64,000 nucleotides of DNA from Neophaeotheca triangularis (GCA_054600435.1 BAAIJX010000004.1:496001-560000); one strand, 5' to 3'. Shown: positions 33,371-62,286, counted from the stretch's first letter. A program made the numbers and translations. Notes: generated by a model not told the origin, from the sequence alone.

Positions 33371-34251
33371 AAGGGTGCACCTTGTCCGGCGAATACCCGG
33401 TGGCTGGGAAGAGAGCAAGGTGAATGCTGCCGTCGTCATGGGGATGGCTGACGTAGGAGGACGCTCGCATGGCTTCCGCCGTCTTCTAGCTTCCTTCTCC
33501 AGCCCCCGTCACCTCGCGTGTTGTACACAACACACTTCCCGATCACCACCACCACACTCCCAACGACCATACTATTGCACTTGCACCGAAATACCACCAG
33601 CGAAGAACAGTCTGCAAGCCAATGTGAGTGACCAGTCCTTCCAGCCTACTCAGCCCCTGCACGCTTCCGACTTCCAACCTCACCTCACCCCCACTGCTCC
33701 CTGTACAATTCAACCATTCCACACATCCAGAAAGTTCCACACCCCATAGGACACCTACAGCGTCATCTTCACGCTTCCCACTACCCCGGTAGCCCTGCTC
33801 CTTGACCCACCAGCAACTTGGTCTTCCAAAGCGGCTTTCCCCGAGGCCTCACACGCTAACAGGAGTTTGCAGAAGCCCGCCAGCACCCGACTACTTCCCC
33901 CAAATCGCATCGAAACCGCTGCCGTCGCCTACAGAGGAAGTCAGAGTCAACGAACCGTGAGTAGCCAAGCCGTCCCTCTCCCCATACTCCCACCCACAAC
34001 TGCGCTCATTCTTTGGTCTTTGCGCATCCGCTTTCCGGCAACTACCACTTGAGCTCGGCCCGTCGCTCTTTCTCCGAGGTGTTTGACGTCGCTACAGTCG
34101 GTACCTCGCCCGTATCGTCTTCAGGGCGGCAAGATCTTGGCCTTCCGCCTCAGCGGCCGTCTAGAGCTTCGCAGTCAGTTTTTTCGAGCCTGTCCAGCTA
34201 ACTTGTGCTCGCAGAAGCACTTTTTTCGTTTTCACAGAGCACCTAGGCGGG

Positions 34252-35446: not shown

Positions 35447-38032
35447 GTCCGACATCGACCGCGTCAGATAGCGAGGACTTCCTTGGCGTAGACGCTCGGC
35501 TGTTCTAGAGTGTCTTTTGATCTTGGAGGTTGCGGGGACAACGTTTGGCGGATCAGGTAGTCCGTGGGTTTCTGGGCCTGGAATGCAGTGTGCTCGAGGT
35601 TTCAAAGCTCTTTCCAGCAGCGGAAGATGGCAAAAGGAGCTCGTTGCTTCTCGCGTTTCGCTTTAGTAGCGAGACTATCACGTCCACGCTGGGATCCTGC
35701 TGGCGTTGTTCATGTTTACCTTTATGCCATGATCTCTTTCAGTTAGCTCGGTATTGAAAACTTTTCGTATCAGTGCTTTCGACCCAGCGCTCCGGCAAAC
35801 CCCATGCCATGCTCCCTGTCCAAATCTCATTACAGCCTTCGCCTGAATAGCGTTCCTACATCGGCGGATGCGTTTGAAGATCGCACCTCACTCCCGCAGG
35901 AAAGTCTTGTCGTCACCGCTTTGGGGCCTCTAACCTTCGACTTTCTTTGAAATCTTCGGCGAGTCCGGTCCCGAAACCCTCTCGTTCCATTACGAAAGCA
36001 TCGGTCACGGAATCCACAATCTTTGCGACAGCGAGTACCAGGGTATGTTGGCGCAGATCGAAGGGCTCGCGAACCTCCTAGCTTCAGCATTTAAGCCACT
36101 TCTCGCTAGTCGCAAAGTCGAATTTGATGGCTCTAACGGCATGGAGGTCGTTCGCTGTTCGCATCGAGGGCGACGAGTGCTGGACTCACTGTCTACGGCT
36201 GGGCGAACAAGGAGGGCCAGGGCCGCGGCGAGTGTAAGGCAAGGAAGCATACCTAGCAGCAGATGGCTGGCTCCTGCTAGAAGTTGCCGCGTCCTTTTTC
36301 AACGACAGCCTGGCGTGCCATCTTGGTCTCGAGGGCGAGCGCGTCCCCGAAGAGATCGGAGGATTTGGCATACGTCCTTCAGGTGTAATCGGCTCGGTGA
36401 ACCGTGAGGCATTGGAGCTCATCTCAAGTGAATTTGGAAGCGAATTCGACAAGTGATGAGCGTAGACTTCGTGAGGGATGTGAGGAGCATCTTTGCTCGC
36501 AAACATTCCGCTATAATGCGGCTCTCTGCGTATCGGCGTACCACGCGAGCGGGTTTTGAAGTGGGCAAATGGCTTCCGCGTGAGCGTTTTCATAGTCAGG
36601 CACCATGAGAGCGAGCCTTGGTGCAGGTATTGGATGCCGGGTGATCGAGGCAGAGTCGAAACTGGAGAGCATGGAAGTTAGCTAGCACATTCGTTCAACT
36701 CATTGTGAAATATTTTAAGCGCGTCCCCGGCGATCTTATCCTTGTAAACTTAGGCTACTGCTGTTGCCCACCCGCTCTCATGATAGTCGCCTCTGCCCAT
36801 TGTGTTAGTAACGCCAAAGACAAGCACAGCGAAAGCGTTGCCGAGCGTAGTTCAAAGCCCCATCGAAGCGAACATTCAACTGGTCCCCAGCGGAGCGACA
36901 CGGATTCTCGTTTAGCCCCCTCGCCGTATTGCTGCAGTTGGGTTGAAGCTGTCCCCCGCTAAGGGCACCGTGGAACGACTAGATTGGCCATTTCAGGACG
37001 CCAGGGATTCATACACATGCATTCTGGGTGAACTTGGCCCTCGGCGAATGGTTTTATGTCGCTCCCCTTGCATCAATGGTCTTTGACAGCGTTATGGATG
37101 CTCAAGATGTCTAGGTTCTTTCGGACCTCCATTTGGTATTAACTCTGGCACCCGGCGATGCGAGCGGCGCCGCTCGACTTACCTCAATGGAGTTTGCTTG
37201 CGGCCGTGGGAGTATGTGCAGCAGCGTCGTATTGCGTGCCTAGAAGCCGTCGGATGGCGAAAGACCGAAGACTGTGTTCAAATTCCTTGTCGCTTCCCGA
37301 AGAAATCATGATCGTGTTCATGTGCCATCAGATATTCCTTCTCTGGCACTCGAAATTTCTTCTTTTATGACATGGCACAATGCTTGCCGGGCTTTTACAA
37401 CTCTCCGGCGCTCTCCCATGTGTCGAGCTCCGACAACGCCTTCACCTTTCACTCCCAGTTGCCTGCCCTTGAATTCAGTCAACAAAAGACATCCGCGAGC
37501 AGTCCCACCATCTACCACGCTTCAACGTCTGCGAAGACATTTCCGGCAGTCACGAGACGCATTGGAGGCAGGGCACCGCCGTCCGCTATCGCAAGCTGTA
37601 CGGGACCTGCACCACGCTCTTGGGCCTCTTGGCTGCCTTCACACCATATTACGAGCCCAGACGGCTTCTGCCAGCCACTCTGGAGTCTGAGCCAACACCC
37701 GCTCAAAGAAACTGGAATACTGTTCTTCGACATAATACCCAGAGACCTCGCAACCAAGGGTTCCTATTTGGAAATCCAGGGTCTTCAGGAAGCCAGGAAA
37801 ACGTGAGTGACCCTTCCTTGTTTGTTTCTTTCTTTTCATTGCGCCGTGCTTGCAGCAAAGTCCGGCTTCAATTCTCACTTCTCAAGCCTATGCCTCTCAC
37901 TTCCATGGACCATATTTTCGATGCCCGAAACCCACTCTTTACCTGCATTGTCAATCAGCTTGAGAATTTCTTGTCATTTCTTCTGGGCCGTCTAAACTGA
38001 ATATTGCCGCTGATCCTCAAACCCAGACGTCA

Positions 38033-39204
38033 ATGAAGATGTCTCATCTCTCGCTCAGCAACGACGGCGATCCCGCCACTTCGATCGCCAGCTATGACCC
38101 GGAGGGTAAAACGTGGCTCCAGAATGTCACCATCAAGGGCGAAGAGGCCTTCACAATCAAGCAGGTAACACTGCCCTCCCCACCCCTTCGTGCAACGGCA
38201 CTGAGACTCCGAGATAGTGCGTAGTTGAAAGCGGTCCTTTGAAAGGCAAGCGTGTCTTCTATGCCGAAAAAGTCACCAGCAAAAACCAATTCGACTTCAT
38301 GGGTCTCCCCGGAGAGCTTCGGAACATGGTCTACTCCCGCATGTTTGGCGAGTCTAAGCCAGTCAGGTCGAGGCAAGTCAAACAGAAAATCAGCGATCGG
38401 CAGTTCGTCACAAAGTTCTCCTTCCGCAGGGGTGACAATCCGGGTCGCGTGAGTACAGAGGGCTGGCTTAAGGCGACTCGCAGCGTCATCGATACTCCCG
38501 GCATTCTCTACGTCTGCAGGCAAGTCAACATCGAGGTCTCGACTATGTTGTACGGTGATACCCCGTTCATCTTTGCTACTACGTCAGTCCTCGCCGCGTT
38601 CGCGAAGAGTGCCGGCAGTATGATCCAGTACCTCCGCATTGTCAAGTTCGATACCGGCTTCCTCAAAAAGGTCAGCAAAGATGCGGCCCGTTACACGCTC
38701 ACGAGAGCCAGTGGGCTTAGGCAGCTGGTGTTCAAACACAAAGACCTCTCCTTCGGTGTCAGGGAGATCGGAGATGACGAGGGAGCGGCCGTGAACGAGT
38801 TCTGCGTTGATATTGTGTGCCTCTTCTACACCGTCTTCATGAGACTTCACAATATTCGCAAGAATACACTGGCCGGTTCCGATGTCTTGAACATTGTGCG
38901 CGTCGAGTACGACGACCCGGGACGTTCTCAAGGGACGCCAATCGCCAAGGACGTGGCAGAGGTGCACTGCAGAAGCCTGCGAGCCCTCGTCAACAAGCAT
39001 ATCGCAGACTTGCTGGAGTTGCCGTCCAACAGATGCCTTGTCAGTGGGGTTGGAATCTGCGGCCCTGGTACACACTTTTACAGCACGCAGCCCCACGAGA
39101 AGATCCAACTCTTGCTCGACATTATGCAGCCGGATAGCAACTATGAGAGCGAGGTTGGCAGCTCGAACGTGAGCTTGGATGGAAGCGACTCGGATGATGT
39201 TTAG
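38033..39204 (+). CDS. F-box-like motif protein, tandem paralog 4 (~372 aa); intron 38165-38217
   Basis: FDFMGLPGELRNMVY, ILYVCRQVNIEVSTMLYGDTPFIF, shared GSDVL and GVGIC motifs with paralog 3. Confidence 0.83.
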
Positions 39205-40277: not shown

Positions 40278-42001
40278 ATGGCTTCGGTCATGGAGGCCTT
40301 CAACGCCTCTTCTACTCCTTTTGCCTCGACGGTAGAGGCCACTATCGCCTCCGCGCAATCCGGAATCATGAGCAAGATCATTGAGGGTGCTAATGGGTGG
40401 AGCATTCTCTTCACGCTGTTGGCCATAGCAGTGGTGTACGATCAGAGTACGTCGCGAAAGACAGACCAAGTAGACGAATGTCGCCAGCGAACTAACTTGC
40501 CTCCTAGTCTCCTACCGCATCCAAAAGGGCGTCCTCGTGGGCCCCGCCTGGAAAACACCCTTCATCGGCCCCTTTCTCGATTCCGTCCGCCCTACCTTCG
40601 AAAAATACCACTCCAAATGGGTCTCCGGCGATCTGTCCTGCGTCAGCGTCTTCCACAAGTTCGTCATCATCGCCTCGACCCGCGACGTGGCTCGCAAAGT
40701 GCTCAACAGCCCGGCCTACGTCAAGCCATGCATTGTCGACGTAGCCGAAAAGTTGCTCCGACCAGAGAACTTTGTCTTTTTGCACGGCAAGGCGCACGTC
40801 GAGTACCGCAAGGGTTTGAACGGGTTGTTCACGAGGCAGGGGCTGGAGACATACCTACCAGGGCAGCAAGAGATCTACAGGGAATACTTGGATGAGTTTG
40901 TCAAGGATACCCAGGAGGCAGGCGAGCACAAACCGTACGTCTACCCTCTAAGGGAATTGATGTGCGCGGTGTCTTGCCGTACTTTTGTTGGTCACTACCT
41001 CTCGCACGCCCAGGTCAAGAAGATTGCGGATGATTACTACATGATCACTGCGGCTATGGAGCTGGTCAACTTCCCAATCATCCTCCCATATACAAAGGCT
41101 TGGTACGGCAAGAAGGCTTCTGACGTTGTCCTCGAACTTTTCGCGTCCTGCTCAGCCAAGGCGAAGGTTAGGATGAGGCAAAAGGGCGCAAAGCCCGAAT
41201 GCCTGGTCGACAGATGGATTCAGCAAATGATGGAGTCTGACCGGTACCGCGCGCGCATCGCAAAGGGCGAGAAGGTGCCCGAAGAGGAGAAGCCCGTCAA
41301 CTTGATCCGCGATTTCAGCGACTTTGAGATTTCCATGACTCTGTTTTCTTTCCTCTTCGCCTCCCAAGACGCCACCTCTTCCGCATGCAGCTGGCTCACG
41401 CAACTGCTTGCCGATCGCCCTGAGATGCTTGCCCAAGTTCGCGAAGAAGCCGACCGCGTCCGACCCAACCGCAAATCCGACGTTACACTTGCCCAGCTCG
41501 AACAGATGGAGTACACTCGTGCTTGCGTCAAGGAAACACTCCGCTACCGTCCTCCCGTGCTCATGATTCCTTACGAGGTCAAGCAGCCCTTCCCCGTCAC
41601 AGACACCTACACTGCTCGCCCGGGCTCCATGATCATTCCTTCCTTCTATCTCAGCTTGCACGACCCGGAAGTCTACAACCAGCCTGACGTCTACGACCCC
41701 GACAGGTGGATACACGGTGATGCCGAGTCGCAGACGAAGAACTGGCTTGTGTTTGGCGCTGGACCGCATTACTGTATTGGGCAGCAGTACGCTGTGCTCA
41801 ACTTGATGCTGTTATTGCACATTCTCGCCAGCGAGTACGAATTTCACCACAAGGTGACCGACACGAGTGAGGACATTAGGGTTTTTGCTACGATCTTTCC
41901 CATGGTGAGTTCTCACTCTCTAGCGATATAAGTATGTTGGATGCAGGCTAACACCACTAAAGGACAATCTCCTTCTTACCTTCAAAAAGCGCAGCAATTG
42001 A
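40278..42001 (+). CDS. ERG5: Cytochrome P450 CYP61, sterol C-22 desaturase; introns 40447-40507 and 41905-41962
   Basis: CVSVFHKFVIIAS, FLFASQDATSSA, ETLRYRPPV, heme motif FGAGPHYCIG, VFATIFPM|D. Confidence 0.95.
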
Positions 42002-42164: not shown

Positions 42165-43538
42165 CTACAGACCGTTCTTCCATCCTCCCTCCTCACCCCA
42201 CACCTTGGCTACCTCCTTCGCGACCGCCAAAACCGATTCGTCCCTGTACCTCGCCCCGACGAGGCTCAGCCCGATGGGCATCCCGTTGGCTCCCTTGAAC
42301 CCCGGCACATTGACCACCGGGACATGGAGCGCTGTCCACAGACTATTGAAAACGGCTGATCCTGTAATCTCCAGGCCCTCCGGCGCCTCATCAGGTACAC
42401 TCGGCGCAATCACCGCCGTGAACTCCTCGGCCAGCTTGTCGAACTTCGGCCTCAACGCTGCGACACCATCACAAGCCCTGGTATAATCCGCCCTCGAATA
42501 CCCCCACTTCTCCTCGACATGGTCGATCAAAAAAGGATTCAACGACTTCCTCGTCTCAGGGTCCGAATACTCCGCCCGAAACGCCACGCGTCCATCGCAG
42601 AATAAGATCCTCTTATGCCACTCAGGCAACTCCTGAAACCCCTCCCCAAGCTCCAACTCCACGACCTCCGCACCCCTCGCCCTCAACAACTCAACCCCCC
42701 TCTCCAAAGCCGCAACCGTCCCCGGTCCTGCCTGCTCCCAAACCATAGTCCTACAAACGGCGAACCTCGCGCCCTTAACCCCCTCTCCCGCTAGAACCCC
42801 CCTGACCCTCGCCAGCGCTGGCACATCATCCTTTACACCAAGCACCTTGCACAACAGTTCCAGGTCCTCCACGCATCTCGCATACAACCCCAGCGTGTCG
42901 AGCAGCAAACTATAAACCTTCTGCCCCTCCCGCGTAATCGCGTTCCAAGTCGGCTTGAAAGCAAAAACCCCATTGAAACTCCCCGGCCGAATGGTGCTGC
43001 CGCCAGTCTGCGTGCCCAGGGCGAGCGGGGCTTGGAAATCTGCCACCACAGCGCCGGAGCCCGACGAGCTGCCCCCCGGCGTGCGTGTCTGACCGAGCGA
43101 CAGGGCGTGTGGGTTTGCGGTTTGTTGGCTCGGTCCCTCCGTCACGGCCGCGAACTCGGTGGTGCTGGTTTTTCCGAGCACGAGGGCGCCGGCGTTGCGC
43201 AGGATTTGCACGCTCCCGGCGTCCACGGCGGGTTGCGAGTTTGCGTAGAGCGCGCTCCCGTGGCTGGTGGGTTGGTCGAAAGTGTAGAGGACGTCTTTGA
43301 CGGCTATGGGGATGCCGTGGAGGGGCCCGCGTTGAGCTGGGGGTAGGGCGTCGAGGGCGCGGGCTTGGGCTAGGACGGTTTCTGGGGAGAGGTGAGCCCA
43401 GGCTTTGGTTTGGGGGTTGCGGTGGGCGATGTGGGTTAGGAGGTTTTGGGCGTAGGCTGTGGCTGTGAGGGTGCCGGCTGTCAGGGCGGCGTGGGCGGCG
43501 GTGGCGGTCAGGCGGTGGGGTAGGGTTTGGGGATCCAT
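42165..43538 (-). CDS. Amidase signature family enzyme, 457 aa, intronless
   Basis: LHGIPIAVKD (catalytic K), PGGSSSGS, LGTQTGGSTIRPGSFNGVFAFKPT, GMPIGLSLVG. Confidence 0.92.
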   Translation of the reverse strand: MDPQTLPHRLTATAAHAALTAGTLTATAYAQNLLTHIAHRNPQTKAWAHLSPETVLAQARALDALPPAQRGPLHGIPIAVKDVLYTFDQPTSHGSALYANSQPAVDAGSVQILRNAGALVLGKTSTTEFAAVTEGPSQQTANPHALSLGQTRTPGGSSSGSGAVVADFQAPLALGTQTGGSTIRPGSFNGVFAFKPTWNAITREGQKVYSLLLDTLGLYARCVEDLELLCKVLGVKDDVPALARVRGVLAGEGVKGARFAVCRTMVWEQAGPGTVAALERGVELLRARGAEVVELELGEGFQELPEWHKRILFCDGRVAFRAEYSDPETRKSLNPFLIDHVEEKWGYSRADYTRACDGVAALRPKFDKLAEEFTAVIAPSVPDEAPEGLEITGSAVFNSLWTALHVPVVNVPGFKGANGMPIGLSLVGARYRDESVLAVAKEVAKVWGEEGGWKNGL

Positions 43539-44593
43539 GGTTGTTTGCTGGTTAAAGTGGAAGTTTTGAACTGGCTTGGCTTAGTTTTCTGGGGGTTTAC
43601 GGACAGATTCGACGCCTCCTTCTAGTGTCTAAGCCTTCATATGAGCAAGAAGCTCAACTCGATGAATATATAATATAAACTACGTGGTGCGACATGAATC
43701 ACGGCATGAGCTCACGCAGGTACAGCTTTACGTGCTCGCGGCGGGACTGCCGGAATCCCATCGGCAAAAGAGTGCCGTACCAGTTTCGATTGATAGGGAA
43801 GTCCAAGAGGCAAGCCGTCGGCGAGTAGCCGTGCAGCTGACTACCTAGTGTTGTTTGAGGTATTATTGTGGAAAGGTGAAAGATAAGCTGCAAGCGATGC
43901 GTGCGATGTCGGAGCTGAGTGATCGAGCTGGTGGGGGGAATGGAATGTGCATACAATATGTGCTTTTGATCGACCCGGACCTCTTAGGTTCGACGCGAGG
44001 ATGTTATCACAAGGGACTTCGTATGATGGTACTGTACCCAGAGCAAGGCACGTCGAGTATCTGACTACGTTGCGCTGTGTAGGATAGAACCCTGCTCCAG
44101 GTGTCCCGTCGTGGCTGTCGGTTCAGAACATTGCCCCCTAGGCCGCTGCCGTGGAGTTGTTACAACGCAGTTAGGCTAGCGCTGCGCAAGTGTAGGAGCT
44201 CCAAGTGTAACATTCCGAGCCAGCATGATGGCTTTGGCAGTCAGAGGTGGCGTCGCGTATGACATGGAAGTCCGAATCGCAACCGCTCAGAAGGTCCCGG
44301 GCAAGATTCTCAGCTGTGGGATAGGGAGGACGAGACACGAAGGGGTAGACAGCTTGAGTCTGAGAAACGAATTGACCTCCCCAGCTATAGGTATTTAGGT
44401 ACAACCTTCGCCGAGAAGCTTGACTTCTCGAATCAATCCCACCCGGGCAGGTTTCTTCGCAACTAGTACCCAAACGTTGAGAAAGTGGCGAAACGTAAAG
44501 CTAGAATGTAGCGAGAAATAGAACAGTCTGTGTTCGAAGTCAATAGAATAAGATTATCTATTGCAAATTAGCGGTTCTATATACACGTGTCGA

Positions 44594-46478
44594 TCAAACC
44601 TCCTGAGACTTCTCTTCTTTACCCTTGGCGGAATCAGGGGCAACCATGACCTCCTCAAGCTCCACGCTACTGTTCCCCGAAACAATCACACTCTCTTTCT
44701 CCCCATCAAAGAAGCCATCTCTTCCATATGGCGTAGCAAGACCTTCCCACGTCACAGGCAGAGCTTCAAATCCACTTGGGAAGACTTTCGGATGCCAGAA
44801 GATATTCGCCACGGCATAGACGGTCGCGGCAGTGAGGAATGTGAGGATCCAGCCCATGGTGTACATGTACTGCGCGTCTTGACTGACGTTCTGGAACTCG
44901 CCAACGAGACCCGGAAGCCCCATTGAGACACCGCAGAGCCAGGAGAGGGCGCCGACCCAGTTGACGCCGCCCCAGAAGCGATACAAGCCGGTCTTTGATC
45001 CGTCGTAGAGCGAGGGTACATGCAGGTTCCCACGGAGGGAGAGGGCGTAGTGGGTTATTATGATCTAAGATGGGTCGTGGTTAGCAGTGGATGGTAGGAC
45101 GGACAGTGTCCGGCGAGACTTACAGCGCAAAGAGGAGCCATGAAGATGTTGTAAGAGCCTAAGAAGCTCAAAAACTCTTCGGCGTTGGCCAACAGTTCCC
45201 AAGGAACCAGCGCTACGCCCAAGATTGCACACAGCACCTGTCCCCGGCGGATTGTGAAGAATTTTGGCGCGAGACCAGCACAGTCTGAGCCGAAGGGGAT
45301 GGAGTTAGTTCCGAAGTTTGTAGCAAAGCAAGCCAGAATGAAAGCTAGGGCAACCAGAAAGATACCAGTACGCCCGGCAGGAGTCCAGTGATGATCCAGT
45401 ATTGCATCCAGCAGATCCCAAATGTTCCAATAAGCTTCTCCCCATTCTCCCTGCATTGACACCGTACATGCCATACCGAGGAAGAAAACGAGAATCTTCG
45501 CAAAGAAGACGGCTGCACCTTGCACCCATCCGGCATCTCGCGGTCGCTGGCAATACCTCGCTAAATCGGGTTGGTTGACTAGCATGGGAGACAAGGTCCC
45601 CATGATGACATTGATGCCACTCATGATGGAGAATCCGAGCGGCATGGCCGCAGATGCTGGTTCGGCCGCTTCATTTGTGTTGTCGATGGTTTGCAGTCCA
45701 GTGCCGTTGGCCATGCACCAACCAAAGAGTCCAAACACTGTGACTGGCATAATAAATCCCTTGACCGTGAACAAGTGGTGGATCTTGGTCGGATGTACAA
45801 ACATGAATGGCAGTTCCAGAAGCCAAATCATGAAGAAACACAGCAGCTGTCCACTGGTCACATTGGCACTCGCTGGCAAAGAGTTTGGAAAGTTTTCCCA
45901 ATTGTGACCAAAGACGCAGCGGAGGCATACGCTCATGAGGTTTGCTGCGTAAAAGGTCTGGATCCCGTACCACACGATGCAGATGACCGCTCGAATGAAG
46001 ATGAAAAAGAAGCTCCCATACATTCCCATGACCCCGCGGGTCAAGACTGCGTAGGCGATGTGGTACATGACGCCTGGACGAGCCATGGCCACTACCACGA
46101 AAGCCGCGAGTAAAGATCCGAGGACACAGGAGATAAACGCTTGCTGCCATGTCTATAGACCCTGTTAGCAACCAAATCGACCGTGATATCGTTCTTGAAC
46201 GTTCTCACCAAACCAACAGCGATCAGTGCAGAGGCAACATTCCACCCGGTCGTCGAAAACATGTTTGAGAACCAGAACATTGGCAAGCTGATCCAGGTCC
46301 ATGTCCTTCCCTCTGGTCCGGTTGGCTCGAGGTCCTTATTCGACCAGGTTGAATTGCCAACCATAGGCCGCCCGCCTTCGGGCTCTTGTGGAGTTCGAAG
46401 AAAATCGACAAAGGCACTTCTCGATTGGAAAGGGGCTTTCAAAGCCGCCGTATCCGGCATCCTGCCAAAGCGTGCCAT
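44594..46478 (-). CDS. NCS1 family nucleobase/allantoin/uracil permease (Fur/Dal4-like); 2 introns (~46153-46207, ~45063-45124)
   Basis: WSNKDLEPT...RTWTW, RAVICIVWYGIQ, NQPDLARY, PWELL, FLSFLGSYNIFMAPL, YRFWGGVNW; about 12 hydrophobic segments. Confidence 0.92.
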
Positions 46479-47334
46479 CGTATCGTGCACGGAAAGCGAT
46501 ACCCGTGAATGCTGTGGTTTGCAAAATAGAGAACTGAGTCCAATTTGAAAGGTTATTGCCTACCTGAGAACATTCATGATACTGCAATGCCTTCCATTGT
46601 ATATGGTTCATTGGTGCGATATCGTCCCCTCTACAGAGACGCTTCCCACGTAGGGGTCTGTAGTCGGCTGCTTTCAGCCCGATGGCTTAACACATCTTGC
46701 CGACTACTTCACCTGCGCCCAGCATCTTCGTTAGTGCGCTCAGTTTACTAGCTAACAGAGAAGGCAGACCAAGTCGCCGTGTTGATAAGGCAAATAATCT
46801 TCGGTCTAGATACGGTAAAACTTCGAGATTCGGGACCCAGAAGAGCGAGATGGCTCGCCCAGATAACGAAGTTGGCCGCATCTTGACGATTGGCTGCTAA
46901 TGCGCGATAGCTGTACGAGACGAAGCTGGTTTCTGGAGTATTACTCTGGAGTCTGGGTGCTGTTGTTGATCAGGAAAGATGGTCAGTAATCCAAGAGGGC
47001 GAAGTGTCTTCTGTCGGAGGTCCGCCACGCCAAGTGGCCACCCCCTATCTCCCAGATTGGCTTATCACTTGGCGTATCTTTCTTATGCAACGTCAGGGAA
47101 TCTTCGACCGGCGCAAGCAGGAGATCTGGAGAGCCTCCAAGAAACATCTCGGATCGAGCTACTACAATCGGAGATAGCTCGTGGGTTATCAATCATGAAG
47201 TCGTGTTTGGAGATCCCGAATATCGGCGGAGAGCTTGCCGTAGACCTCAAGGGCGGCAAAGCTGAACCCGACCGACACCAAGTCGAGCTCACTGTACTAG
47301 GCACTCAAGGCGTCAAAGAAGGATAAACGGTGAA

Positions 47335-49664
47335 ATGAGTGTCTCACGGCCCAGTCTGGGGCCAGAAGAGCCCGATGTGTCCACAGAGGGAGGTGCTGCA
47401 AAAGCTCGGGTCGCATTGGCTTGCCAACGCTGCAAGCGAAGAAAGCAGAGGGTATTATCATCGCAACCATGGCACTGCATTTGATCCGAGAAGGAGGCTA
47501 ACACCGTGCGAACACAGTGTGATGGTGTCAGCCCGTCTTGCAAGTCCTGTCTCAAGGCAAAGGCCATTTGTACCTATGAAGTGCCTATGCGCGTTCGATA
47601 TCCTGGTGGCAAGTCCCGGTAAGATGTCAGCTGGTCTTGTTCGACCAGAAACGAAGGTCTGACTGTGTGCAAAGCTATATCAGTGCGCTCGAAGATCGCA
47701 TCGCCATGCTTGAAGCGTCCATGCCGGAATACAGCGAGGATCACCTAGTAGCCAAGACAAGTTCCCCTGTCCAGCAGTCTGAGAAATCTAGTGGAGGCGA
47801 GGCGTCGAGGCTTTCCAACACTATCAACCATAATAGTCAGAGAGATGAGCAAGGAACCTCGACGGTTGTCGACGGCGTGGCCTTCTTGTCGCTTTCGGCA
47901 TCTGGAGCGACCGATGTGGCCTCTGAACCACACTATCTTGGCTCCAGTTCTGGTGTGACAATAGCAAGACTACTTCAGGCCTCCATCTTCGATGACTCGT
48001 TGGGTAATGAGCAGCGTAGATTTTATGGTTCCCAAGCATCATCACCTGATGCGGATGAAAGATCACCACTCAATGTTCGCAAAGCCTCCTGTGCATTGCC
48101 GGAAATCAACATTGCCTCGAAGCTCCTAAAAACCTTTTTTGAGAAATTGCATACTCGCTGGCCGCTGCTGGATCGAAGACTGTATGAAGATCTGTTCCAA
48201 CAGCACTGGCAAAATGCGACTTCTCTTACGTCCATGCAAAGAAGCATGTTCCACCTTGTGTTTGCGATTTCAGCCAGATTCCACCAGCTCACTCGGCAAT
48301 CTTGTGAGGTTGATCCAGATGTGAGTTCGTTTACACCATGCCCGTCAGCAGCGCGAACAGCTAATCCATGAGTCCAGATGCATTTTGAGACTGCTGTCTC
48401 GGGAATGGATGACATTGTACAGCAACACAGTCTTCTCACAGTCCAATTCATTAGTCTCCTCGCTATCCATGGCCAGCGGTCTCCTTTCGGCGCTGGATCC
48501 TGGTCTCAAGTTCGCCATGCTTTTACCCTTGCCATAGATCTTGGTCTTCACCGTAAAGAAGCAGTAGGGATGGATAGCTGCGCGAACCGTGAATTTGAGC
48601 TGCGACGTCGTGTTTTCTGGTGCTGCTATTGTTTGGATCGCGAGACTAGCATAACACTCGGACGAAGTTTTGCCATTAGTGATCGCGACATCAATGCCGA
48701 AATGCCTTCTCAACATCCCGACACCTACGATCTGACCGAATCGGCTTCGCCCAAATCTTGCGAACCCGTCTGGACGAACATATTGCCCTTCATACACATC
48801 GCAAAACTCTGCAGAATCCAATCGAAAATTCACAGACTTGTCTTCCGGGTCGACAAGAACATCCTCGACCTTGAACACAACGAGAAACGCCGTCTAGAGA
48901 CCAAACTAGCAACCATAGGTCGTGAGCTAGACGCTTGGGTTGCTACAGTTCCCAAGTCCCCAAGAAGCGGGGCGAGAACTCATTGGCTGTATGATAGCGA
49001 AGCCAGCTACAACGACTGCAGCGACTACTTCAATCTGCAATACCACAAGACACTCCTCATGCTATTCACCGCGTTACTTCCGGGCTTTCAACAAGGCGAC
49101 TCCCGCATCAAAGCCGGCGCCAAGTCCGCCGTCGCCATCTGCATGGCGTACAAAAGACTCCACCAGCAGAAGATCTTGACGTACACGACCATCGCCCTTC
49201 ACTCCTGCTTCGTGGCAGGGCTAACGTTGATCTACTGCCTCTGGCGCGACAAGACGCTCTTCGACTACGGCTCTCTCGAGGCTACGCACGCTTGCACGCA
49301 AGCCCTAACAATCTTCGCCGAAAAGTGGCCAGGAGCGGCCAAGTATCGAGATGTCTACGACGGATTGTCCGGGCGGGTTCTCAGAGATCTGATCGGTGAG
49401 CAACAGAGGCAGAGCGGTTTGCAGCAGCCGGCTCCTCCCTCTAATTCCGCCGCTGTCGAGAGACAGACTCTGGACGAGGTGCATCAGGATGCTCCTGGCG
49501 GCTGGCAAGTTGGTGCGATGTTTGATGAGCTGGTGGGAACAGCTTTTTGCGGTGACTTCTCTGGAAACGAGCCGATGGCGGGATCCTATGTTGATTCTTC
49601 TATGGCGCTATCAGGTTTTCCCGAGAATATTGGGGAGCCGGAGTTCAATTTCATGCCATACTAG
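47335..49664 (+). CDS. Zn(II)2Cys6 transcription factor with fungal-specific middle homology region (Ppr1/UaY-like); introns 47452-47517, 47619-47674, 48321-48377
   Basis: Spliced ACQRCKRRKQR|CDGVSPSCKSCLKAKAIC, YISALEDRIAMLE coiled coil, YLGSSSG, DLGLHR, RRRVFWCCYCLDR. Confidence 0.92.
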
Positions 49665-50880
49665 CTTTTATATAGTCGAGGAAACGGCAAATAGATGGGC
49701 TGTCTGGGCCTCTGAGCAAGTAAGTCACTTTTACGTTGCATTGGAATACTTTTGCTATATCTACTCTCGGTAGGTGTTCAAAGTGAGTCTTCCATGCCTC
49801 ACTGAAAGGTCTCTCACTTCAAGTTTCCTTATGTGGTTCGCTTCGGTTCATTGTACCGCTCTCTCGTAGAGCCTACTCCTTCCTACCTAGCTTAGCATTT
49901 GAATAGTGTGTAAGACTGTCTCTGATTTGTTGATACGACTTATAGAGCTTTGAAGGCTTCAAACACCCTACCTACAATCTCAACTATCTTCTTAACAACA
50001 ACAGTGTTATTACTATGTGCAGTAACGACAAGCCACCGGGACGGAACTTTTGAATCCAGACGGCGCTACTTAGTTGGCTCCTCGAGACACCTTGCGCTGC
50101 TCAAAACCTTGTGGAGGTCAGGTGAGCAAATGCTGATAAGTGCCTCAACTCGCTAATATTAACCGCGAGTGATTTTCGAGCTAAGATGGTCGCTTCCCGG
50201 CGCATTTCTCAGCTAACAGCAATCCGCAGTAGTAGAGGATTCAACGGCAACATTCCAGACCTGCCTCCTAAATCTAAAAAGTTTCAGGGAAATCAGCTTC
50301 CCTAAGCCGCCGGGGGAGACAGCTAAGCTTTCTCTCACATCTAGGTGTTAGCACCCTAGCAGATTCTACGAACCGACATACACGCGCACCTCGAGGCATC
50401 TAGGGTAAAGCTTTCAGATTCTAGCCCCTCAGCCCTGGACCGTGGACAGGGTACAACTGTCACACCTTTGTGCGCCGCCGGGAACGGTATCAACATTAGT
50501 CAAGGCGTCCCAAATTTCTGTCCCTGGTGACTTGGACCGGAGTGTTCGATCTCGCAGCGCTCAGGGACCATGTCGCAATGGAAACGAGACTGGCCCGAGA
50601 GACCTGGCTTGTCGGAGCGATGGGTACTTTTGTGCTGCCGAGAGCGATTTTCGGGTTGCTTTCAAAGTGTGAACGCGGATCAAAAAAGTACCAAGTGGCC
50701 AGGGGGTTCGATGAAGTGTCTTTGCGTACGTGTTCTATATGTCTACAGAGTTCTGCAGTCAATGACGGCGGCCAGCATTATCAGAAGACGCCTAAAAGTC
50801 GAGACCAAGGGCCTAGAAGTCTTCGATGCCCTGGATCGCAACAAGATGCATTTGCACGGCTATCTAGGCGCATCCCGCCA

Positions 50881-51944
50881 CTACTCCTGAGCCTTGGCCA
50901 ACTCCCCCTTCTGATACGGAAACTGTTCCTTAAAAGCCTCAGCGATCTCCGTCCGAGTTGCGACCCACACGCCTTCTTTCTTGCTGATGTAGTCAACAAA
51001 ATCCTTCAGAGCCTTGAATCTGCCAGGACGCCCAATGACACGGCAGTGCAGTCCAATCGTCATCATCTTCGGCTGCCCTTCCTCGCCTTCTTCGTAGAGA
51101 ACGTCGAAGGCGTTCTTGAGATGGGTGTAGAAACTGCTCGGGTCGCGGAAACCGGAGCCTACGGTATGGAATTTGAAGTCGTTGCAGTCTGTGGCGTTGT
51201 TGTTAGCGCTTGCCGCCTCACGGAGCGAGGAGCGAGAGAACACCCACCATAGCTGTACGGCACCATGAGGCAACCCTTGGGATCTTCTTTCTCCCTCTCA
51301 TGCGCCAGGTCGATCCAGTAGGGTACATCATCCGCATAAGTATCGGAGCACCATACGAGCTCCTCGCCCATCTCCTCGTACACTTGAGGCACCAGCGTGC
51401 GCGAGTGCGGCGAATTACGACCATAATACCAGCCTCTAGGCGCATACCCGCTCAATTTCTTCAAAGACTCAATGCCCTTGCGGATGAAGTCCTTCTCCTT
51501 CTCGACGCCAAAGTCCGCATACGGCAACCAGCGGTAGGCGTGGGAAGCGATGTCGTGACCTTTCTCCACGCACCGTGAAGCAACTTCGGGGACTTCCTCG
51601 ACAGCTTGGGCGACAGCGTAGAGGGTGAATTTCATCGCATAGTTGTCGAAAAGCCTGAACAAGCGCCAAAAGCCCGCTCGGCTGCCGTACTCGTATTCGG
51701 ACTCGACGCTGTAATCTCGCTCGTTGATGGCAGCCGGTCCTATGGGGTTTTCACGTAGGTTGTTCTCGCTCTGTCCATCGCCTGCTAGTACGGAGCGTTC
51801 ACCTCCTTCTTCGTAGTTGATCACAAAGGAAACGGCGATCTTGGCGTCGTTGGGGAGTTTCCACCCTTGCAAGCCTGGCTCGCCGTAGCCTCTGTAGTCG
51901 CGGTCATAGTGATAATCGGGGTGAGCGTAGTATTCGCGAGGCAT
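50881..51944 (-). CDS. PuuE-type allantoinase / polysaccharide deacetylase-fold hydrolase; intron 51189-51247
   Basis: IAVSFVINYEEGGE, YEYGSRAGFWRL, ASHAYRW, GWYYGR, DTYADDVPYW, VPYSY|DCND, KMMTIGLHCRVIGRPGR. Confidence 0.88.
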
Positions 51945-53009
51945 TTTGAAAGCAGTATAGGAAATTCACTTGGAAGTATACAAGGTGAGGAGAGGTGGGA
52001 TGCTTGATAGAGAGAGAGAAAGAAAGAGGGAGCTTCGGTGCAAGACCATCATATACACCATCATATAGGTGTTATGGAGATTACTTTGTCCGATCTCGCA
52101 GTAAGAGAACCATGAGAATCCGCATGCCTTACCGTCTTACTATCTCTGAGGTCTCATGTTTACCTTTTTGGGAAGTTGTGTCGGCCTGAGTGTAGCGATC
52201 TGTCGGCGTGAAATCAGGCGAAGCTCGTTCTGCGATCGTTCTTTTCCGAGCCATCTGCGAAGGATTGACTCTAGACATTAGTACTGTGGTACTAGGAGGC
52301 ATATGTCACGATGTGCTCGAATGACAACTTGATAGCCAGATAGGCGTGGAAGGCGGAGGCTCCGACCTATGCGGGCTGCTGCGTCTCCTATCGTGTGGCT
52401 GCAGGGTGTGTTTCTTTTGCTGATAAGAGGTGAAGTCCAGCGTGGAAACCTGAGGCATGATCCGAAATCTTCGGAACGTTTTGAGCCGACAGCAAGACTA
52501 CACCCAAAAAAGCACTAGTCCGAAATAGGCAGCATGGAGCCCTTCTTTCGCCCTTATCTACCATCTCTTCGAAAGAGCTAAACGGGCTGAGGAACCGCCT
52601 TGTTTGGAGCGGTATTGACTAGAGCCAGTATGAAGGCGCTCAATATGCCCAATTTTGTCCCCTCTAGAGTTATATTTGATTGCGAGAACGTGGGATACAT
52701 AATGTAGTGGATCTGTGATAGCGGCGCGCACACTTGGCCGGCTTATGACTGCGGCGGTATCCTCAAGAATGTGGATAGGACAAAAGTCGCTCGTCAGGCT
52801 GTTAGCTCCAAAGTCGGTCTACACTCGGAGGTAGTCTTGCGAATGTTACGAATGTACCTTCCGGTGGAGGGTGAAATACAATAGGGACGTCCAAATCCGC
52901 TTTGTCTGTGAATGTACATCTAGTTGACCTTTTCTCCCTCTTCTTCCGACCACGGCTCTATTCGCCCAGTTTAGCATAAGAAGACACAAGATCGACAATA
53001 GCAGGCAAC

Positions 53010-54185
53010 ATGAGCGACGGCAGGTTGTTCACACCTATGAATGTCGGACGCAATGTCTTGCAACACCGAGTAGTAATGGCGCCCTTGAGTCGGTATCGAT
53101 GTGATGATGATTGGGTTCCCCTCCCAATGGCAGAAGGTAGGTCCACTCCGCGACATTGAACGACTACAGTAGAAACTTACGACGTTACAGAATACTACGC
53201 CCAGCGTTCGTGTGTACCGGGAACTCTTATGGTAACGGAAGCAACGGCCATCTCTCGCCGCCACGTCGGAAAATTCAATTGCCCCGGAATCTGGTCAGAG
53301 GACCAGATCAAAGCGTGGAAAGGCATCACAGACGCTGTCCACGCGAACGGCTGCAGGATCTGGTGCCAGCTATGGGCCATGGGCCGAACTGCGCTCCCCG
53401 ACGTAGCCGCGAGCGTGGGATCTAAAGTCATGTCTTCCTCCGCCGTTCCTGTGCCTGAAGAAGGAATCGAGACGCCGGTCGAAATGACCGATCAGGACAT
53501 TCAGGAGACCATCTCCGACTATGTGTCTGCGGCAAAGAATGCTATGGAGGCTGGTTTCGACGGTGTTGAGATACACGGCGCAAACGGATACCTACCTGAT
53601 CAGTTCTTGCAGAATACCTGCAACAAGCGCACCGATCGATGGGGCGGCAGTATCGAGAACCGATGTCGCTTTCATTTTGAAGTAGCAAAGGCAATCGCCG
53701 AAGCCGTGGGCGCAGAGAGGACCGCCATGCGTCTGAGCCCATGGAGCGATTGGCAAGGCATGCTGATGAAAGATCCAATTCCAGATTTCACGCGTCTAGT
53801 CGAGCTTCTCAAGACGCTGAAATTGGGCTACCTGCATCTGGTTGAGGCGCGCTTGAGAGGTAACGATGATGTTGATGTCGCAGCCGACAAGAACATCAGC
53901 TGGCTCGTAAAGCTCTGGGACAATACCAGCCCGGTGCTCATCGCAGGCGGCTTCAAGCCCGATACAGCGCTGGAGGCTGCTGACAAGACCTACCGCGGCT
54001 ACGACGTTGCGATTGTCTTCGGTCGATACTTTGTTTCCAACCCGGACCTTGTCTTTCGCTTGAAGGCGTCGGTGGAGATGAAGAAGTATGATCGCTCTGT
54101 ATTCTACACTCCTAAGCTGCCCGAGGGGTACATTGACTATCCGCTCAGCGCGGAGTTTGTTGCGGAAACGCGAGTCGAGGCATGA
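53010..54185 (+). CDS. Old yellow enzyme (NADH:flavin oxidoreductase); intron 53137-53190
   Basis: VVMAPLSRYR, EYYAQR, GFDGVEIHGANGYLPDQFL, NKRTDRWGGSIENR, FGRYFVSNPDL, GYIDYP. Confidence 0.94.
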
Positions 54186-54810
54186 AGGGATTGTCGAAGG
54201 CGACGAGAGCACGAGTGGCGAAGGCGACACGAATGATGAAGACGTCGAGACAGGACGTGGCCGAATGCCCAGCGTTTGATATCTTCGGTTTCCCGCTAGG
54301 TACCTCCGAAACCTTGCACTAGGTTATCCAACGCTATCTATGTATAGCACGTGTATATCGCACCAATGCCGAAAAAGTGGCGCCGGGCCTTGCACAGGCT
54401 AAGAACGACCCGCGCCTAACTTAGTCCCTGCCAAGCCTGCCCACTGCCCAGGGGACGGCTTCTGTTGTGTCACGACATTTTTTTCTTTCAACGTCCACTC
54501 AATTTTTTCTCCCTTTTGTCGTTGCAGTCACCGCTGACTTTGTTGGGGCCGCCGAGTCCGTGCCTGTCCATTCCGTGAGACAAGACGAGACGGCAAAGAG
54601 ATTACAATCAGATAGGTAGGGCTAGATAAACCGGTCCACATTCCTTTGTACCCACCCTTTCCCTCCTACTTCACCTCATCGAACAATAATTTCGTCGCCG
54701 ACTACAGTCACTCGTTTCAAACCACAGTCGCTATCTACAAAGAATTCATACAAGCTGCACGAGCCTTACGAGCACTCTTGCCTCACCAAAACAAAACCAC
54801 ATCCACCAGA

Positions 54811-55091
54811 ATGAGCGCATTGAAAATCGCAACTGCGGCTTCTGGCCTCGCCCTCACGGCTTCCGCCTTCGCCTACTCCCAAAAGCAAACCACCGACTTC
54901 TCTCAGACCGCAAAGACAGTCAGCGAGACTGGTACTCCCGCCGGTATCTCCCAGCAGGGTGAGAAGAAGAAGCTGTAAGTTGATTCACAGCAAAGTCTCG
55001 CAATGGATCACATCGCTGACATGTGATGCTCAGGCCATCCGAGTTCTTCCAGTTCACCATTGGCGGCTACAAGCTCGGCCATGGCGCCTAG
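54811..55091 (+). CDS. Small spliced hypothetical protein, 73 aa; intron 54975-55033
   Basis: MSALKIATAASGLALTASAFAYSQ...EKKKL|PSEFFQFTIGGYKLGHGA*; GTAAGT...GCTGAC...CAG intron, C-ending codon bias. Confidence 0.7.
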
Positions 55092-56286
55092 ATGGTCTCA
55101 GACAAGCGATCGGGCTGAGAGGGTTGCTCAAGACAAGGCGAGGAAAACGATATCAATGAGGGCGTAGGACTGGGGTGTGAGCATTTACAAGGGCGCTTGA
55201 GGGCATAATGATAGATGGGGTTGCTTTCGCGGATACCACTACAGACGATAGATCGATAGACTTGCTTCTGGTTATGCATGGGAGAGCGGAAGAATACGGA
55301 TGGGTAGATTATACCAGCACATCAAACGCCACCACTCTACCAGTCACCTTCTCCATTTCTGCTTTCCCGATCATGGCCTGGGACGTTAATGGCGAAGTAT
55401 GTTTCATCCGCTGAAAGCACCTCCCGGCCTCATCGGACTCAGAGCTGTCGCAAGCGAGACCCTTCTGCCTGGACCTTCGAGTCTGGGAACCGAGCAAATG
55501 CCCCCTAATGGGTGACGTCGATGCCGAGCCGCCTCGCGCAACGTTGCAGTAAATCTATGATTATGGTTGGTATGTCCCGGGCGCTCCTCAGGAGTTCAGA
55601 AAGCGCTGTGAATCCGGCCCAGCTTGAAGCCAACACTGCTACTCCGCCGCCCGAAGCATCTACGGCACAGCTCGAATCGTACGTCGAGCCACTGAGCGCG
55701 TCTCGGTAGCCAGCTTCGTAGGAAGTTCGAATTCAGCACTCTCTGCGTCGTTCGCGGGAGTTTTTGAAGCTCTTGATCGTATGTTCTGTGGCTAAATGGA
55801 CACCTGCACTGACTTCAAGTGGCCGGGATTGTTTACTTACATTCTTGCTGGGCCGTCGGAACCGGTCACGCCACTGGCACTCACGTGCAAAGCGTTATAG
55901 AAAGCTCACGCCGAGGCTAGTGATGCAGAGTTCGTGAAAGCGAAGGCTGGCCAGAGGCAGGCGACTTCACCTCGACCAGATTTCTCCCTAAAGACTGCTG
56001 CGTGCAAAACATGCGAAAACGCTCGCGGGAGTGTCGCGCCTCCAGCTTAATTCCTTCTTCAACGCAGCGGAGCAATGCTCGCGAAAACGGGAACTAAGAC
56101 GGAACTTCCACGCATCAGCGAGCCGGGAGGTGTTCAAGACGCAACGCATCGCTATACCGCCTGCAGGTGCCAGCTAACCATGTTTAAAATCTAAACATAC
56201 TGAGAGAGTCAAGATGGCTTGGATCAAAACCAGCGTGAGATTAAAGTCATCTGTCACGTCTACCTCTAGACAAACAAGCCTCTATT

Positions 56287-57931
56287 CTAATCCACATTTA
56301 CAACATGTCCACCCTCATCAACAGCAACCTTGACCTTCTTGGTCGACTCCTTGCGAGGATTCTTGGCCTCGAAAATCTCACTCAGCTCCTCCAAAGTCTT
56401 ACCCGCCGTCTCGACGAAAAAGAAATACACCGTGACCAACTCGATGCAAATCCAGACAATATAGACCAAATACAACCGCCAGCCAATCTCGGCAATGCCC
56501 ACGGAGATGCCGTAAGTGTTGACGACCATGGCGACGTTGAGGAAGAGGAAGTTCAGCCCGCTGCCCTTGGCACGGGTTCGGTTTTCCAGGCACTCGACCG
56601 CGTAGAGGGTTTGCAGTGGGGTCCAGCCCCAGGCGAAGAAGATGCCGAAGAGGTAGATGCTGACGATGGTGCCGTAGGCGAGGTCGGGGTTGTTTTCCGA
56701 CGTGGCTGTGAAAGCGGTGAGGAGGACGTAGGAGCCCAGGGCGCCGACCAGACCCCACATGAGCATTGTGCGGCGGCCTAGGCGGTCGAGGAGCGTGGCG
56801 CCGTACATGGCGGCTATCATGCTGAAGATGGGGTTGATGGCGTTGATCAAGAGTTGGGTGTCGGTGTTGGTGATGCCCGCGTTTTCGACCATGGCTGGCA
56901 TGAAGTATGAGACCACGTTGTTTCCGCTCCATTGCCCGAAAAATGCCATGGCGATCACCATGTAGAGTCTGTACCTCGCGGCGGGAGTGTACACGAGCTC
57001 TTTGAAGTCCCACCATGGGTTGTTGTTGCGAGTTACGGCCATGTCTTCGCAGATTTCGTGTATTTGGAGACGTACGAGGGGGTGCTCTGGGTTTCCTTCG
57101 CCGTGGTATTTGGCCAAAACTTGGATGGCCTCTTCGCGGCGGTCTTTCATGATGAGCCAACGTGGAGATTCGGGGAAGAACATGACGATTGCCATGACGA
57201 TACCGGGGAGAATACATTGGACGAGGGTAGGGAGACGCCATGCCCATGAGCTGTCGCGGAGATTGACACTTGTTCCGTAGGTCGTCCAGCCAGCAAGGAT
57301 GTTGCCCATCCACCAGAGTGTGTTATAGGCGCCTGCCATGATGCCACGGTAGGCGGGATGAGCGAGCTCGACGGTGTAGGCGGGGCCTGCTGCGCTTGCA
57401 ATGGATGCGCCAAATCCTAAGATCTATATGCCACGCATTAGCAGCTGTCTTAGGTTGTCGAGCGACCAAAGACGATCTTACGAATCTGCCCGCGATGAAT
57501 TGACCCATCTCATGTGCCGTGGTCTGAACCGCAGTACCGACGAGAACGAGAAGGCAGCCCACGAAGATACAGACACGACGTCCATAGCCATCAGCGAAGA
57601 AGCCGCAAAAGGGGAAAGCGGCAATTTGTCCCAAGTTGTAGATGATGAAGATTATTCCCGTCGTGCTACCCTCGCCGCTTAGCCCAAAGGTCCGTTGATA
57701 CGAAGGCATTGCGTTGATTGCGCCCATGAGGCTGGAGTCGAAGCCGTTCATGGTTGAGACGAGGTACCCAATGCCCATGATTGCGTAAAGCTTTAGCATG
57801 CTTTTGGAGAGAGGCGATGGCTTCTGAAGACCCAGTGCCTCTGCAAGAGCTGCAGAGGCGACAGCCTCTTCCTTGACAGCAGCACCTTTCTGCATGTCAT
57901 CCTCGATTTGGACATGGTTGTCCTTCTCCAT
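56287..57931 (-). CDS. Sugar porter MFS, lactose/cellodextrin permease (Lac12/LacpA-like); intron 57424-57481
   Basis: NGFDSSLMGAIN, ADGYGRR, AWRLP, PESPRWL, GQWSGNN, DRLGRR, ETAGKTLEEL. Confidence 0.92.
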
Positions 57932-58224
57932 GATTGCGTGTTATGAGTCGAGTTCGTTGTAGAAGCAAGATATTGCCCTTGGGTTTCGTGCAATAAACGG
58001 TGAAGAAACAATATGGCAAAGAGAGCCCAAGGCAGCGGATATAGCGGCACTATATGAAGCTCACCACAGTCTCAAAGTTTGACCATACCAGCGCTTCCCC
58101 CACACGCCCCCGGGCCCTCCACTGAGGGGGAAGATCACGGTCGCGAACATGAGATGAAGGATTTGTAGCCATACCAGCGGGTAGTAGCATTGGCGATTGG
58201 CTGACCTACTTTGAGGCGTCGAAA

Positions 58225-59091: not shown

Positions 59092-62286
<3,195 letters not shown>

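Follow-up and report, generated by a model that had tools for sequence, protein, structure and literature searches.

Five genes between positions 42165 and 54185

We analyzed a 64,000-nucleotide stretch of DNA from the Dothideomycete Neophaeotheca triangularis (Neophaeothecales; GCA_054600435.1 BAAIJX010000004.1:496001-560000), referred to below as the window, and focused our attention on five neighboring genes that probably make up a catabolic cluster: an amidase-signature amidase, a Fur-type NCS1 permease, a Zn2Cys6 regulator with a fungal_trans domain, a PuuE-family hydrolase of the NodB/CE4 fold, and an ene-reductase of the old-yellow-enzyme (OYE) family. An earlier note on the same DNA had listed these genes as a possible module for the use of allantoin or a related cyclic ureide. 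Pfam matches and gene models, in which introns were placed by canonical GT..AG sites and continuity of the reading frame, bear out all five genes, their families, and their positions.

The amidase gene occupies 42165..43538 on the minus strand as a single exon (43538-42168; 457 amino acids [aa]) with its stop codon at 42165-42167. Its open reading frame (ORF; 42165-43580, minus strand) matches PF01425 at 4.9e-69, and its product is database protein P0121. A 1055-base-pair (bp) spacer at 43539..44593, taken as the amidase promoter, separates it from the 3' end of the permease gene (44594..46478, minus strand), which encodes 589 aa in three exons (46478-46209, 46152-45124, and 45064-44594; two introns). 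The permease matches Transp_cyt_pur (PF02133) at 2.2e-60 over 45058-46152 of the minus strand, the flanking exons match this family too, and the spliced product is identical, letter for letter, to the 589-aa N. triangularis protein P0261 (MBLNU230_g5175t1). A cytochrome P450 gene (PF00067, 5e-54; 40474-41931, plus strand) converges with the amidase gene, 3' end to 3' end.

The permease and regulator genes diverge from an 856-bp promoter region (46479..47334), and the PuuE-like and OYE genes from one of 1065 bp (51945..53009); both divergent pairs had been noted previously, and both hold. The regulator gene (47335..49664, plus strand) encodes 716 aa in four exons (47335-47451, 47518-47618, 47675-48320, and 48378-49664; three introns) and matches Fungal_trans (PF04082) at 9.8e-21 over 48372-49664 of the plus strand. 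The PuuE-like gene (50881..51944, minus strand; exons 51944-51248 and 51188-50881, one intron) encodes 334 aa and matches Polysacc_deac_1 (PF01522) at 1.3e-12 over 51159-51965 of the minus strand. The OYE gene (53010..54185, plus strand; exons 53010-53136 and 53191-54185, one intron) encodes 373 aa and matches Oxidored_FMN (PF00724) at 8.6e-79 over 53160-54185 of the plus strand.

The hydrolase pocket and the partner proteins

Among solved structures, exon 1 of the hydrolase is closest to 3S6O (6.3e-52), 1Z7A (3.2e-48), and PuuE of Pseudomonas fluorescens (3CL6; 2.5e-47), and it matches HpPgdA (3QBU) at 5.9e-9 over residues 86-172. BpIH, a Burkholderia imidase that opens 3-isobutylglutarimide, is 91% identical to 3S6O and 61% identical to PuuE (PMC11424739); hence, the PuuE family holds both allantoinases and imidases. 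Glu45, His135, and Trp139 of the window hydrolase align with E38, H127, and W131 of BpIH and PuuE, the Glu-His-Trp triad as given in PMC11424739, and replace the Asp-His-His metal triad of deacetylases. Its N-terminus is hydrophilic and shows no evident signal peptide. By its sequence, the hydrolase is assigned to the PuuE family and is neither a polysaccharide deacetylase nor an HxnM-type imidase.

Docking of a substrate into BpIH placed 17 residues at 5 A or less from it, and these are reported to be highly conserved in 35 PuuE sequences (PMC11424739). The window hydrolase keeps 14 of these 17, all catalytic ones among them, and shares with PuuE and BpIH the NodB fold and the His/Arg pair. 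The three changes are N62, Y232, and F237, at positions F55, L217, and M222 of BpIH and PuuE. We aligned the window protein with 61 fungal orthologs that share 62% identity or more with it, 27 more distant fungal sequences, and 72 bacterial sequences. Excluded beforehand on length were 32 of the 120 fungal proteins listed (not within 280-370 aa) and 6 of the 78 bacterial ORFs (not within 270-520 aa). Twelve positions are invariant across the groups (N36, E38, H127, W131, Y165, G167, R168, Y190, Y215, N220, H263, and R265). At position 55, 65 of 72 bacteria have F and 43 of 61 fungal orthologs have N; at position 217, 68 bacteria have L and 58 fungal orthologs Y; at position 222, 67 bacteria have M and 59 fungal orthologs F. 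The fungal N/Y/F combination occurs in none of the 72 bacterial rows.

A FastTree analysis of the 161 rows separated bacteria and fungi fully (support 100) and placed the window protein in a fungal clade of 63 rows (support 98). Scored separately, exons 1 and 2 reach 202.1 and 114.4 bits against the PuuE equivalog TIGR03212, and even their sum is below the cut-off of 424.6. Genomic context differs as well: the window gene is clustered with amidase, NCS1, and OYE genes and not with urate genes. At 7 of the 10 bacterial loci checked for purine context, the PuuE homolog has purine or urate genes as neighbors (for xanthine dehydrogenase, urate oxidase, HIU hydrolase, OHCU decarboxylase, which is fused in two cases, allantoicase, or ureidoglycolate lyase), and these seven are genuine purine-pathway PuuE proteins. 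All 10 homologs have L217 and M222, and the seven in purine context match F/L/M except for one F55L. In the two fusions (L018:10004-11410 and L032:9998-11437), the PuuE homolog carries a C-terminal OHCU decarboxylase domain, the source of the "uraD N-terminal domain" name of TIGR03212. A Ustilago maydis "PuuE1" is named in the literature as a protein that was not analyzed.

The nearest solved structure to the amidase is malonamidase E2 of Bradyrhizobium (1OCK; 1.1e-46, 163 bits), ahead of GatA (2.8e-32, 116 bits); allophanate hydrolases (around 1e-25) and FAAH (around 1e-15) match more weakly. The protein carries a Ser-cisSer-Lys triad and a GGS-x-I-R-P motif like those of malonamidase E2, whose K62, S131, S155, and R158 all have aligned counterparts in it, and these four are invariant in 20 fungal orthologs. 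The relationship is distant, and about 65 additional residues extend the N-terminus of the fungal amidase. Arg158 of malonamidase E2 binds the carboxylate of the substrate; a half-amide substrate would fit this role.

All three exons of the permease match PF02133, and exon 2 alone scores 224 bits against TIGR00800, for which the whole-protein cut-off is 353. Of its 202 homologs at E<=1e-20, most bear the name of an allantoin or uracil permease, given by similarity; the allantoin-permease equivalogs NF008476 (97.5 against a cut-off of 620) and NF047713 (66.5 against 800) are not reached by exon 2, the only exon scored. The permease is distantly related to Mhp1 (2e-5), and its ortholog among the Aspergillus nidulans Fur-type NCS1 carriers (FurA to FurG), P0306, is 66% identical to it over exon 2. 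Uracil, allantoin, and uric acid are among the substrates that A. nidulans takes up by Fur carriers (PMC8306328). The nearest solved relative of the OYE is the chanoclavine-I aldehyde reductase of the ergot pathway (EasA; 4QNW, 3.7e-101), followed by generic OYEs and N-ethylmaleimide reductases.

Linkage in other genomes and promoter signals

We assessed fungal linkage from the order of GenBank accessions or locus tags of homologs and from equal sizes of their source records, rather than from DNA read through. By accession or locus tag, pairs from the core of amidase, NCS1 permease, and PuuE-like hydrolase are consecutive or near in 16 named genomes of three classes, Eurotiomycetes, Sordariomycetes, and Dothideomycetes. 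The NCS1 gene lies in the middle in A. nidulans FGSC A4 (amidase CBF87407, NCS1 CBF87409, and PuuE-like CBF87411, which is AN9327), and in A. californicus (KAL3479619/20/21) the NCS1 ortholog is likewise between the PuuE-like gene and the amidase gene. The latter two are two accession numbers apart in A. tetrazonus, A. nidulans var. acristatus, A. spinulosporus, and A. granulosus, and adjacent in Pleurostoma richardsiae (KAJ9136669/68), Penicillium taxi (KAJ5901925/26), Friedmanniomyces endolithicus (LTR12_001835/001834), and Meristemomyces frigidus (LTR62_005779/005780). Amidase and NCS1 genes are consecutive in Colletotrichum plurivorum, C. sojae, Baudoinia panamericana, and Verticillium albo-atrum, and NCS1 and PuuE-like genes in A. 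nanangensis and A. multicolor. In at least 12 more species, two or three of the proteins come from records of equal size, which is suggestive of linkage only.

Conservation of the linkage had been predicted, with its absence from other genomes named as the contrary outcome; the accession and locus-tag order in the 16 named genomes agrees with the prediction. Because the linkage recurs in many other fungal genomes, the arrangement in the window is not due to chance. A fungal metabolic gene cluster is recognized by linked, non-homologous but functionally related genes recurring in distant species, and this is what we find, for the core in 16 genomes, for the regulator in two, and for the OYE on one contig. 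Both A. nidulans, a genetic model, and a number of plant pathogens have the core. No description of the cluster was found in the literature searched with AN9325-AN9327, Afu6g14400/10/20, the A. nidulans protein identifiers, and PuuE and imidase topics, a search that covered articles and not supplementary tables; AN9328 appeared there in unrelated mentions only.

A metagenome scan, in which only 2 short fungal contigs were among the 80 loci kept, supplied the one fungal contig with a linked OYE gene (L001). There, an OYE gene diverges from a PuuE-like gene 537 bp away, and it shares with the window OYE an unusual RYRCDDDWVPLPM motif and the intron position. The PuuE-like gene on this contig is 74-76% identical to that of the window and has two extra introns, and the contig thus comes from a different lineage.

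Bacterial hpx loci, which pair a PuuE-type protein with an amidase, had been offered as an analogy by the earlier note, but 78 bacterial PuuE loci do not echo it, with six weak amidase matches and no NCS1 gene. A bacterial origin of the module was considered and rejected: these 78 loci held no OYE gene either, and 79 loci on the amidase side, found with an alignment query (a single-protein query gave no relative), yielded one OYE gene (L081), one weak PuuE-like gene (L140, 27%), and no NCS1 gene. The closest bacterial relative of the amidase, from Cellulosimicrobium cellulans (50% identity), is encoded directly downstream of genes for an OYE and a transporter binding protein, in an operon-like run of NMT1/THI5-like binding protein, OYE, and amidase (L081:151-3746, plus strand) that is the only OYE-paired locus among the 79. 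Pfam context was heterogeneous at the 11 bacterial amidase loci examined.

The regulator carries a C-x2-C-x6-C-x6-C-x2-C-x6-C motif at residues 30-57, which intron 1 splits in the DNA. A search with exon 4 against 1.84 billion representatives gave 3099 matches at E<=1e-3, with a top group at 50-55% identity and the remainder at 39% or less. Neighborhoods were looked up for 10 of the top 17 matches: the ortholog adjoins an NCS1 gene in Fusarium avenaceum (HG530_001364 and HG530_001363) and V. albo-atrum (ACHAQH_009616 and ACHAQH_009617), and two further regulator/NCS1 pairs are on records of equal size (18880; 23551), which suggests but does not prove a common contig. One ortholog is annotated "related to STB5". 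The "Ppr1/UaY-like" label given to the regulator earlier amounts to "Zn2Cys6 plus fungal_trans" only. In Cylindrodendrum hubeiense, a 917-aa protein (P0260) joins a Zn2Cys6-like N-terminus, 28% identical to the regulator (E 3e-20), to a PuuE-like protein; it is probably a mis-merged annotation of two adjacent genes on the same strand.

HGATAR is the consensus for AreA-type GATA factors. It occurs seven times in the 856-bp permease-regulator promoter (8.2 per kb; 17 of 2000 mononucleotide shuffles reach seven) and eight times in the 1065-bp PuuE-like/OYE promoter (7.5 per kb; 38 of 2000 shuffles reach eight), against a window mean of 1.72 per kb, and outside these two promoters no 1-kb stretch of the 64 kb holds seven or more. 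The amidase promoter is unenriched, with four sites in 1055 bp (711 of 2000 shuffles reach four). Downstream of the OYE gene, a third HGATAR-rich stretch (54251-55500; 6 per kb), with small ORFs at 54616-55159 that have no Pfam match, could be either another promoter under nitrogen regulation or a gene that lacks annotation. Other candidate signals were rejected: the three promoters have no 8-mer in common, enrichment of CGG-N8-CGG is not clear, and the best candidate motif, TTCCGAGCCATCT, has 26 matches (at most three mismatches) against 20.7 expected, a count reached by 15 of 100 shuffles. Comparison of the PuuE-like/OYE spacer with that of L001 gave chance-level 8-9-mers only and no footprint.

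The rest of the window holds ordinary Pezizomycotina housekeeping and nutrient genes. An MFS sugar transporter gene (56287-57940, minus strand) diverges from a gene for a LacZ-like, five-domain GH2 beta-galactosidase (59092-62286, plus strand), resembling a lactose or galactoside utilization pair. Four tandem plus-strand ORFs within 30211-39204 (30211-31113, 32032-32889, 34406-35446, and 38218-39204), with weak DUF7730/2EXR matches, look like a local paralog array of a fungal family of unknown function. An assimilatory nitrate reductase is represented at 357-2432 (plus strand) by its C-terminal two thirds (Mo-co dimerization, cytochrome b5, FAD, and NAD domains), and its gene probably starts at or before the left end of the window.

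Candidate substrates and a proposed pathway

We suggest that the genes are probably a conserved Pezizomycotina catabolic cluster through which nitrogen is salvaged from a small heterocycle, an imide or ureide that is not allantoin. The Fur-type NCS1 symporter would import the ring compound, and the OYE would reduce an activated ring C=C bond where one is present, for example from a maleimide-type to a succinimide-type ring. The PuuE-family hydrolase might then open a ring C-N bond without metal, through its Glu-His-Trp and His-Arg residues, to give a carboxylate-bearing half-amide, which the malonamidase-E2-like amidase would hydrolyze to ammonium and a dicarboxylate. In lineages that carry it, the Zn2Cys6 factor would be the pathway-specific activator, and the GATA-factor sites in the two divergent promoters would put the cluster under nitrogen-metabolite control. 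The data show what the genes are, their catalytic residues, their conserved linkage, the altered pocket, and the enrichment of GATA sites; the order of the steps, the co-regulation, and the substrate class we infer. The general logic proposed earlier, of uptake, ring opening, amide hydrolysis, a dedicated regulator, and an optional C=C reduction by the OYE, fits the evidence, and the accompanying caution that the substrate cannot be read from sequence stands. We rank cyclic imides before pyrimidine- or hydantoin-type ureides, and these before allantoin; a cyclic imide is a tentative first choice that we hold at clearly less than even chances.

The bacterial cyclic-imide pathway (Blastobacter) uses an imidase and a half-amidase, in two steps, to yield a dicarboxylate and ammonia. 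The proposed cluster would follow the same two steps of ring opening and half-amide hydrolysis. To our knowledge, the bacterial pathway employs different protein families and has no dedicated NCS1 importer or Zn2Cys6 regulator. The closest fungal functional analog is the lower nicotinate pathway of A. nidulans, with the OYE HxnT, the cyclic imidase HxnM, and the amidase HxnN (PMC9304392, PMC8478523). It, too, is clustered, serves nitrogen use in Pezizomycotina, and combines ene-reduction, opening of a cyclic imide, and deamidation of a half-amide. The proteins differ, however. HxnM is HpPgdA-like (cd10938) and more than 60% identical to the Pseudomonas putida cyclic imide hydrolase, whereas the window hydrolase matches HpPgdA only at the E-value given above; HxnN (543 aa) is FAAH-like and nearest FAAH1, whereas the window amidase is nearest malonamidase E2 (PMC8478523, PMC9304392); and the hxn transporters described are MFS proteins, whereas that of the window is an NCS1 carrier. 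Orthology to hxnM, hxnN, and hxnT was rejected, since HxnM and HxnN belong to other subfamilies than the window hydrolase and amidase, and equivalents of hxnS, X, V, W, and Y are absent from the window. Enzymes redundant with HxnT and HxnN, still to be identified, are reported in A. nidulans (PMC9304392).

An alternative allantoin route, in which the NCS1 carrier would import allantoin, the PuuE-like protein would be the allantoinase, and the amidase would act downstream on, for example, allantoate or another ureido amide, would account for the family membership and kept catalytic triad of the hydrolase, for the allantoin-permease names that permease orthologs bear by similarity, and for the purine or urate operons in which 7 of 10 bacterial hydrolase relatives are found. 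We nevertheless consider it improbable. The hydrolase scores below the TIGR03212 cut-off, its pocket is N/Y/F in 43, 58, and 59 of 61 fungal orthologs as opposed to F/L/M in bacteria, and the permease reaches 97.5 against an equivalog cut-off of 620. In A. nidulans, alX4, a nonsense allele of the Dal1-type allantoinase AN4603, is described as phenotypically null, and allantoin served as the only nitrogen source in the selection of suppressors (PMC4065248). Since this species carries the amidase-NCS1-AN9327 trio, the cluster gives no working allantoin route under those conditions, although activity that was not induced there is possible. The sub-cut-off score, the three changes among 17 pocket residues, and the alX4 phenotype thus speak against allantoin as the substrate, one of the options of the earlier note. 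The statement of the note that no Dal1/Dal2/Dal3-type domain is present holds among the 40 larger window ORFs scanned, and these contain no urate or other purine-catabolic gene either. A pyrimidine- or hydantoin-type ureide (dihydrouracil, barbiturate, hydantoin, or an N-substituted hydantoin) is a rather unlikely substrate in our judgment; ring opening would give a ureido acid to be cleaved by the malonamidase-like amidase, and ureidomalonase-type chemistry offers the comparison. The kinship of the amidase to malonamidase E2 agrees with this, as does a luciferase-like monooxygenase at 3 of the 11 bacterial amidase loci, two of them also with a flavin or nitro reductase, which recalls Rut-type pyrimidine genes. 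On the other side, we know of no OYE enzymes that act as uracil reductases, and no urease or urea-handling gene is nearby. Uptake of uracil, allantoin, and uric acid by A. nidulans Fur-type carriers would suit a ureide (PMC8306328), but the best-characterized close relative of the hydrolase besides PuuE is a glutarimide imidase (PMC11424739).

A secondary-metabolite or detoxification pathway that includes the neighboring P450, with the EasA-like OYE, the amidase, and the hydrolase tailoring or inactivating a ring-amide natural product, seems very improbable to us. The ergot-pathway enzyme nearest to the OYE, the P450 gene 3' of the amidase gene (40474-41931), and the opening of 3-substituted glutarimides by BpIH-type enzymes (PMC11424739) could be read in its favor. 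However, the ORFs scanned encode no polyketide synthase, nonribosomal peptide synthetase, terpene synthase, or prenyltransferase domain, an importer is part of the conserved core, the enrichment of GATA sites points to nitrogen control, and a core that spans three fungal classes is unusual for a biosynthetic cluster. Nor do we give much credence, indeed hardly any, to the view that the genes are unrelated neighbors, with the PuuE-like protein a chitin deacetylase and the amidase GatA-like. Database names ("chitin deacetylase 1" and "Glu/Asp-tRNA amidotransferase subunit A") suggest as much, but the hydrolase has a hydrophilic N-terminus with no apparent signal peptide, the amidase scores 163 bits with malonamidase E2 as opposed to 116 with GatA, and the genes are linked in 16 named genomes; the linkage and the active-site data contradict this view.

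Several observations weigh against the catabolic cluster for an imide or ureide other than allantoin that we prefer. The PuuE family includes true allantoinases, the permease orthologs are named allantoin or uracil permease by similarity, and a ureide substrate is possible. The 17 pocket positions derive from a published docking model and not from the structure of a complex. Linkage of the OYE is seen on one fungal and one bacterial contig, and no motif common to the three promoters passed the chance control. Two members of the core are unlinked in Teratosphaeriaceae sp. CCFEE 6253 (LTR53_008342 and LTR53_006689, on different small contigs), and in Thozetella and Elasticomyces a hydrolase paralog of 53-60% identity lies off the amidase contig. 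Nor is the regulator a constant member: in A. nidulans, the gene numbered next to AN9327, AN9328, is listed as a C2H2 factor (PMC8396895), and the Coniochaeta hoffmannii ortholog of the regulator is on another contig. Expression or enzyme data for the orthologs were not found in the literature searched, which did not extend to supplementary tables of transcriptome studies.

A bolder proposal, which we think unlikely but worth stating, takes the fungal PuuE clade to be a new kind of cyclic imidase that needs no metal and whose pocket is fixed as Asn/Tyr/Phe. On this view, the cluster would be a second, independently assembled module that reduces, opens, and deamidates natural cyclic imides of the maleimide, succinimide, or glutarimide type, such as maleimides derived from tetrapyrroles or antibiotics of the glutarimide class, and the enzymes reported to be redundant with HxnT and HxnN in A. 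nidulans (PMC9304392) could be its OYE and amidase. Catabolic gene clusters of fungi are far less charted than biosynthetic ones. The cluster that we prefer would give the PuuE fold a new physiological substrate class in eukaryotes, correct the widespread "chitin deacetylase 1" and "GatA" annotations, and supply a metabolic context for an orphan Fur-type NCS1 carrier. PuuE-type imidases already serve industry in the desymmetrization of glutarimides, so the divergent pocket of the fungal clade may be of practical use as well.

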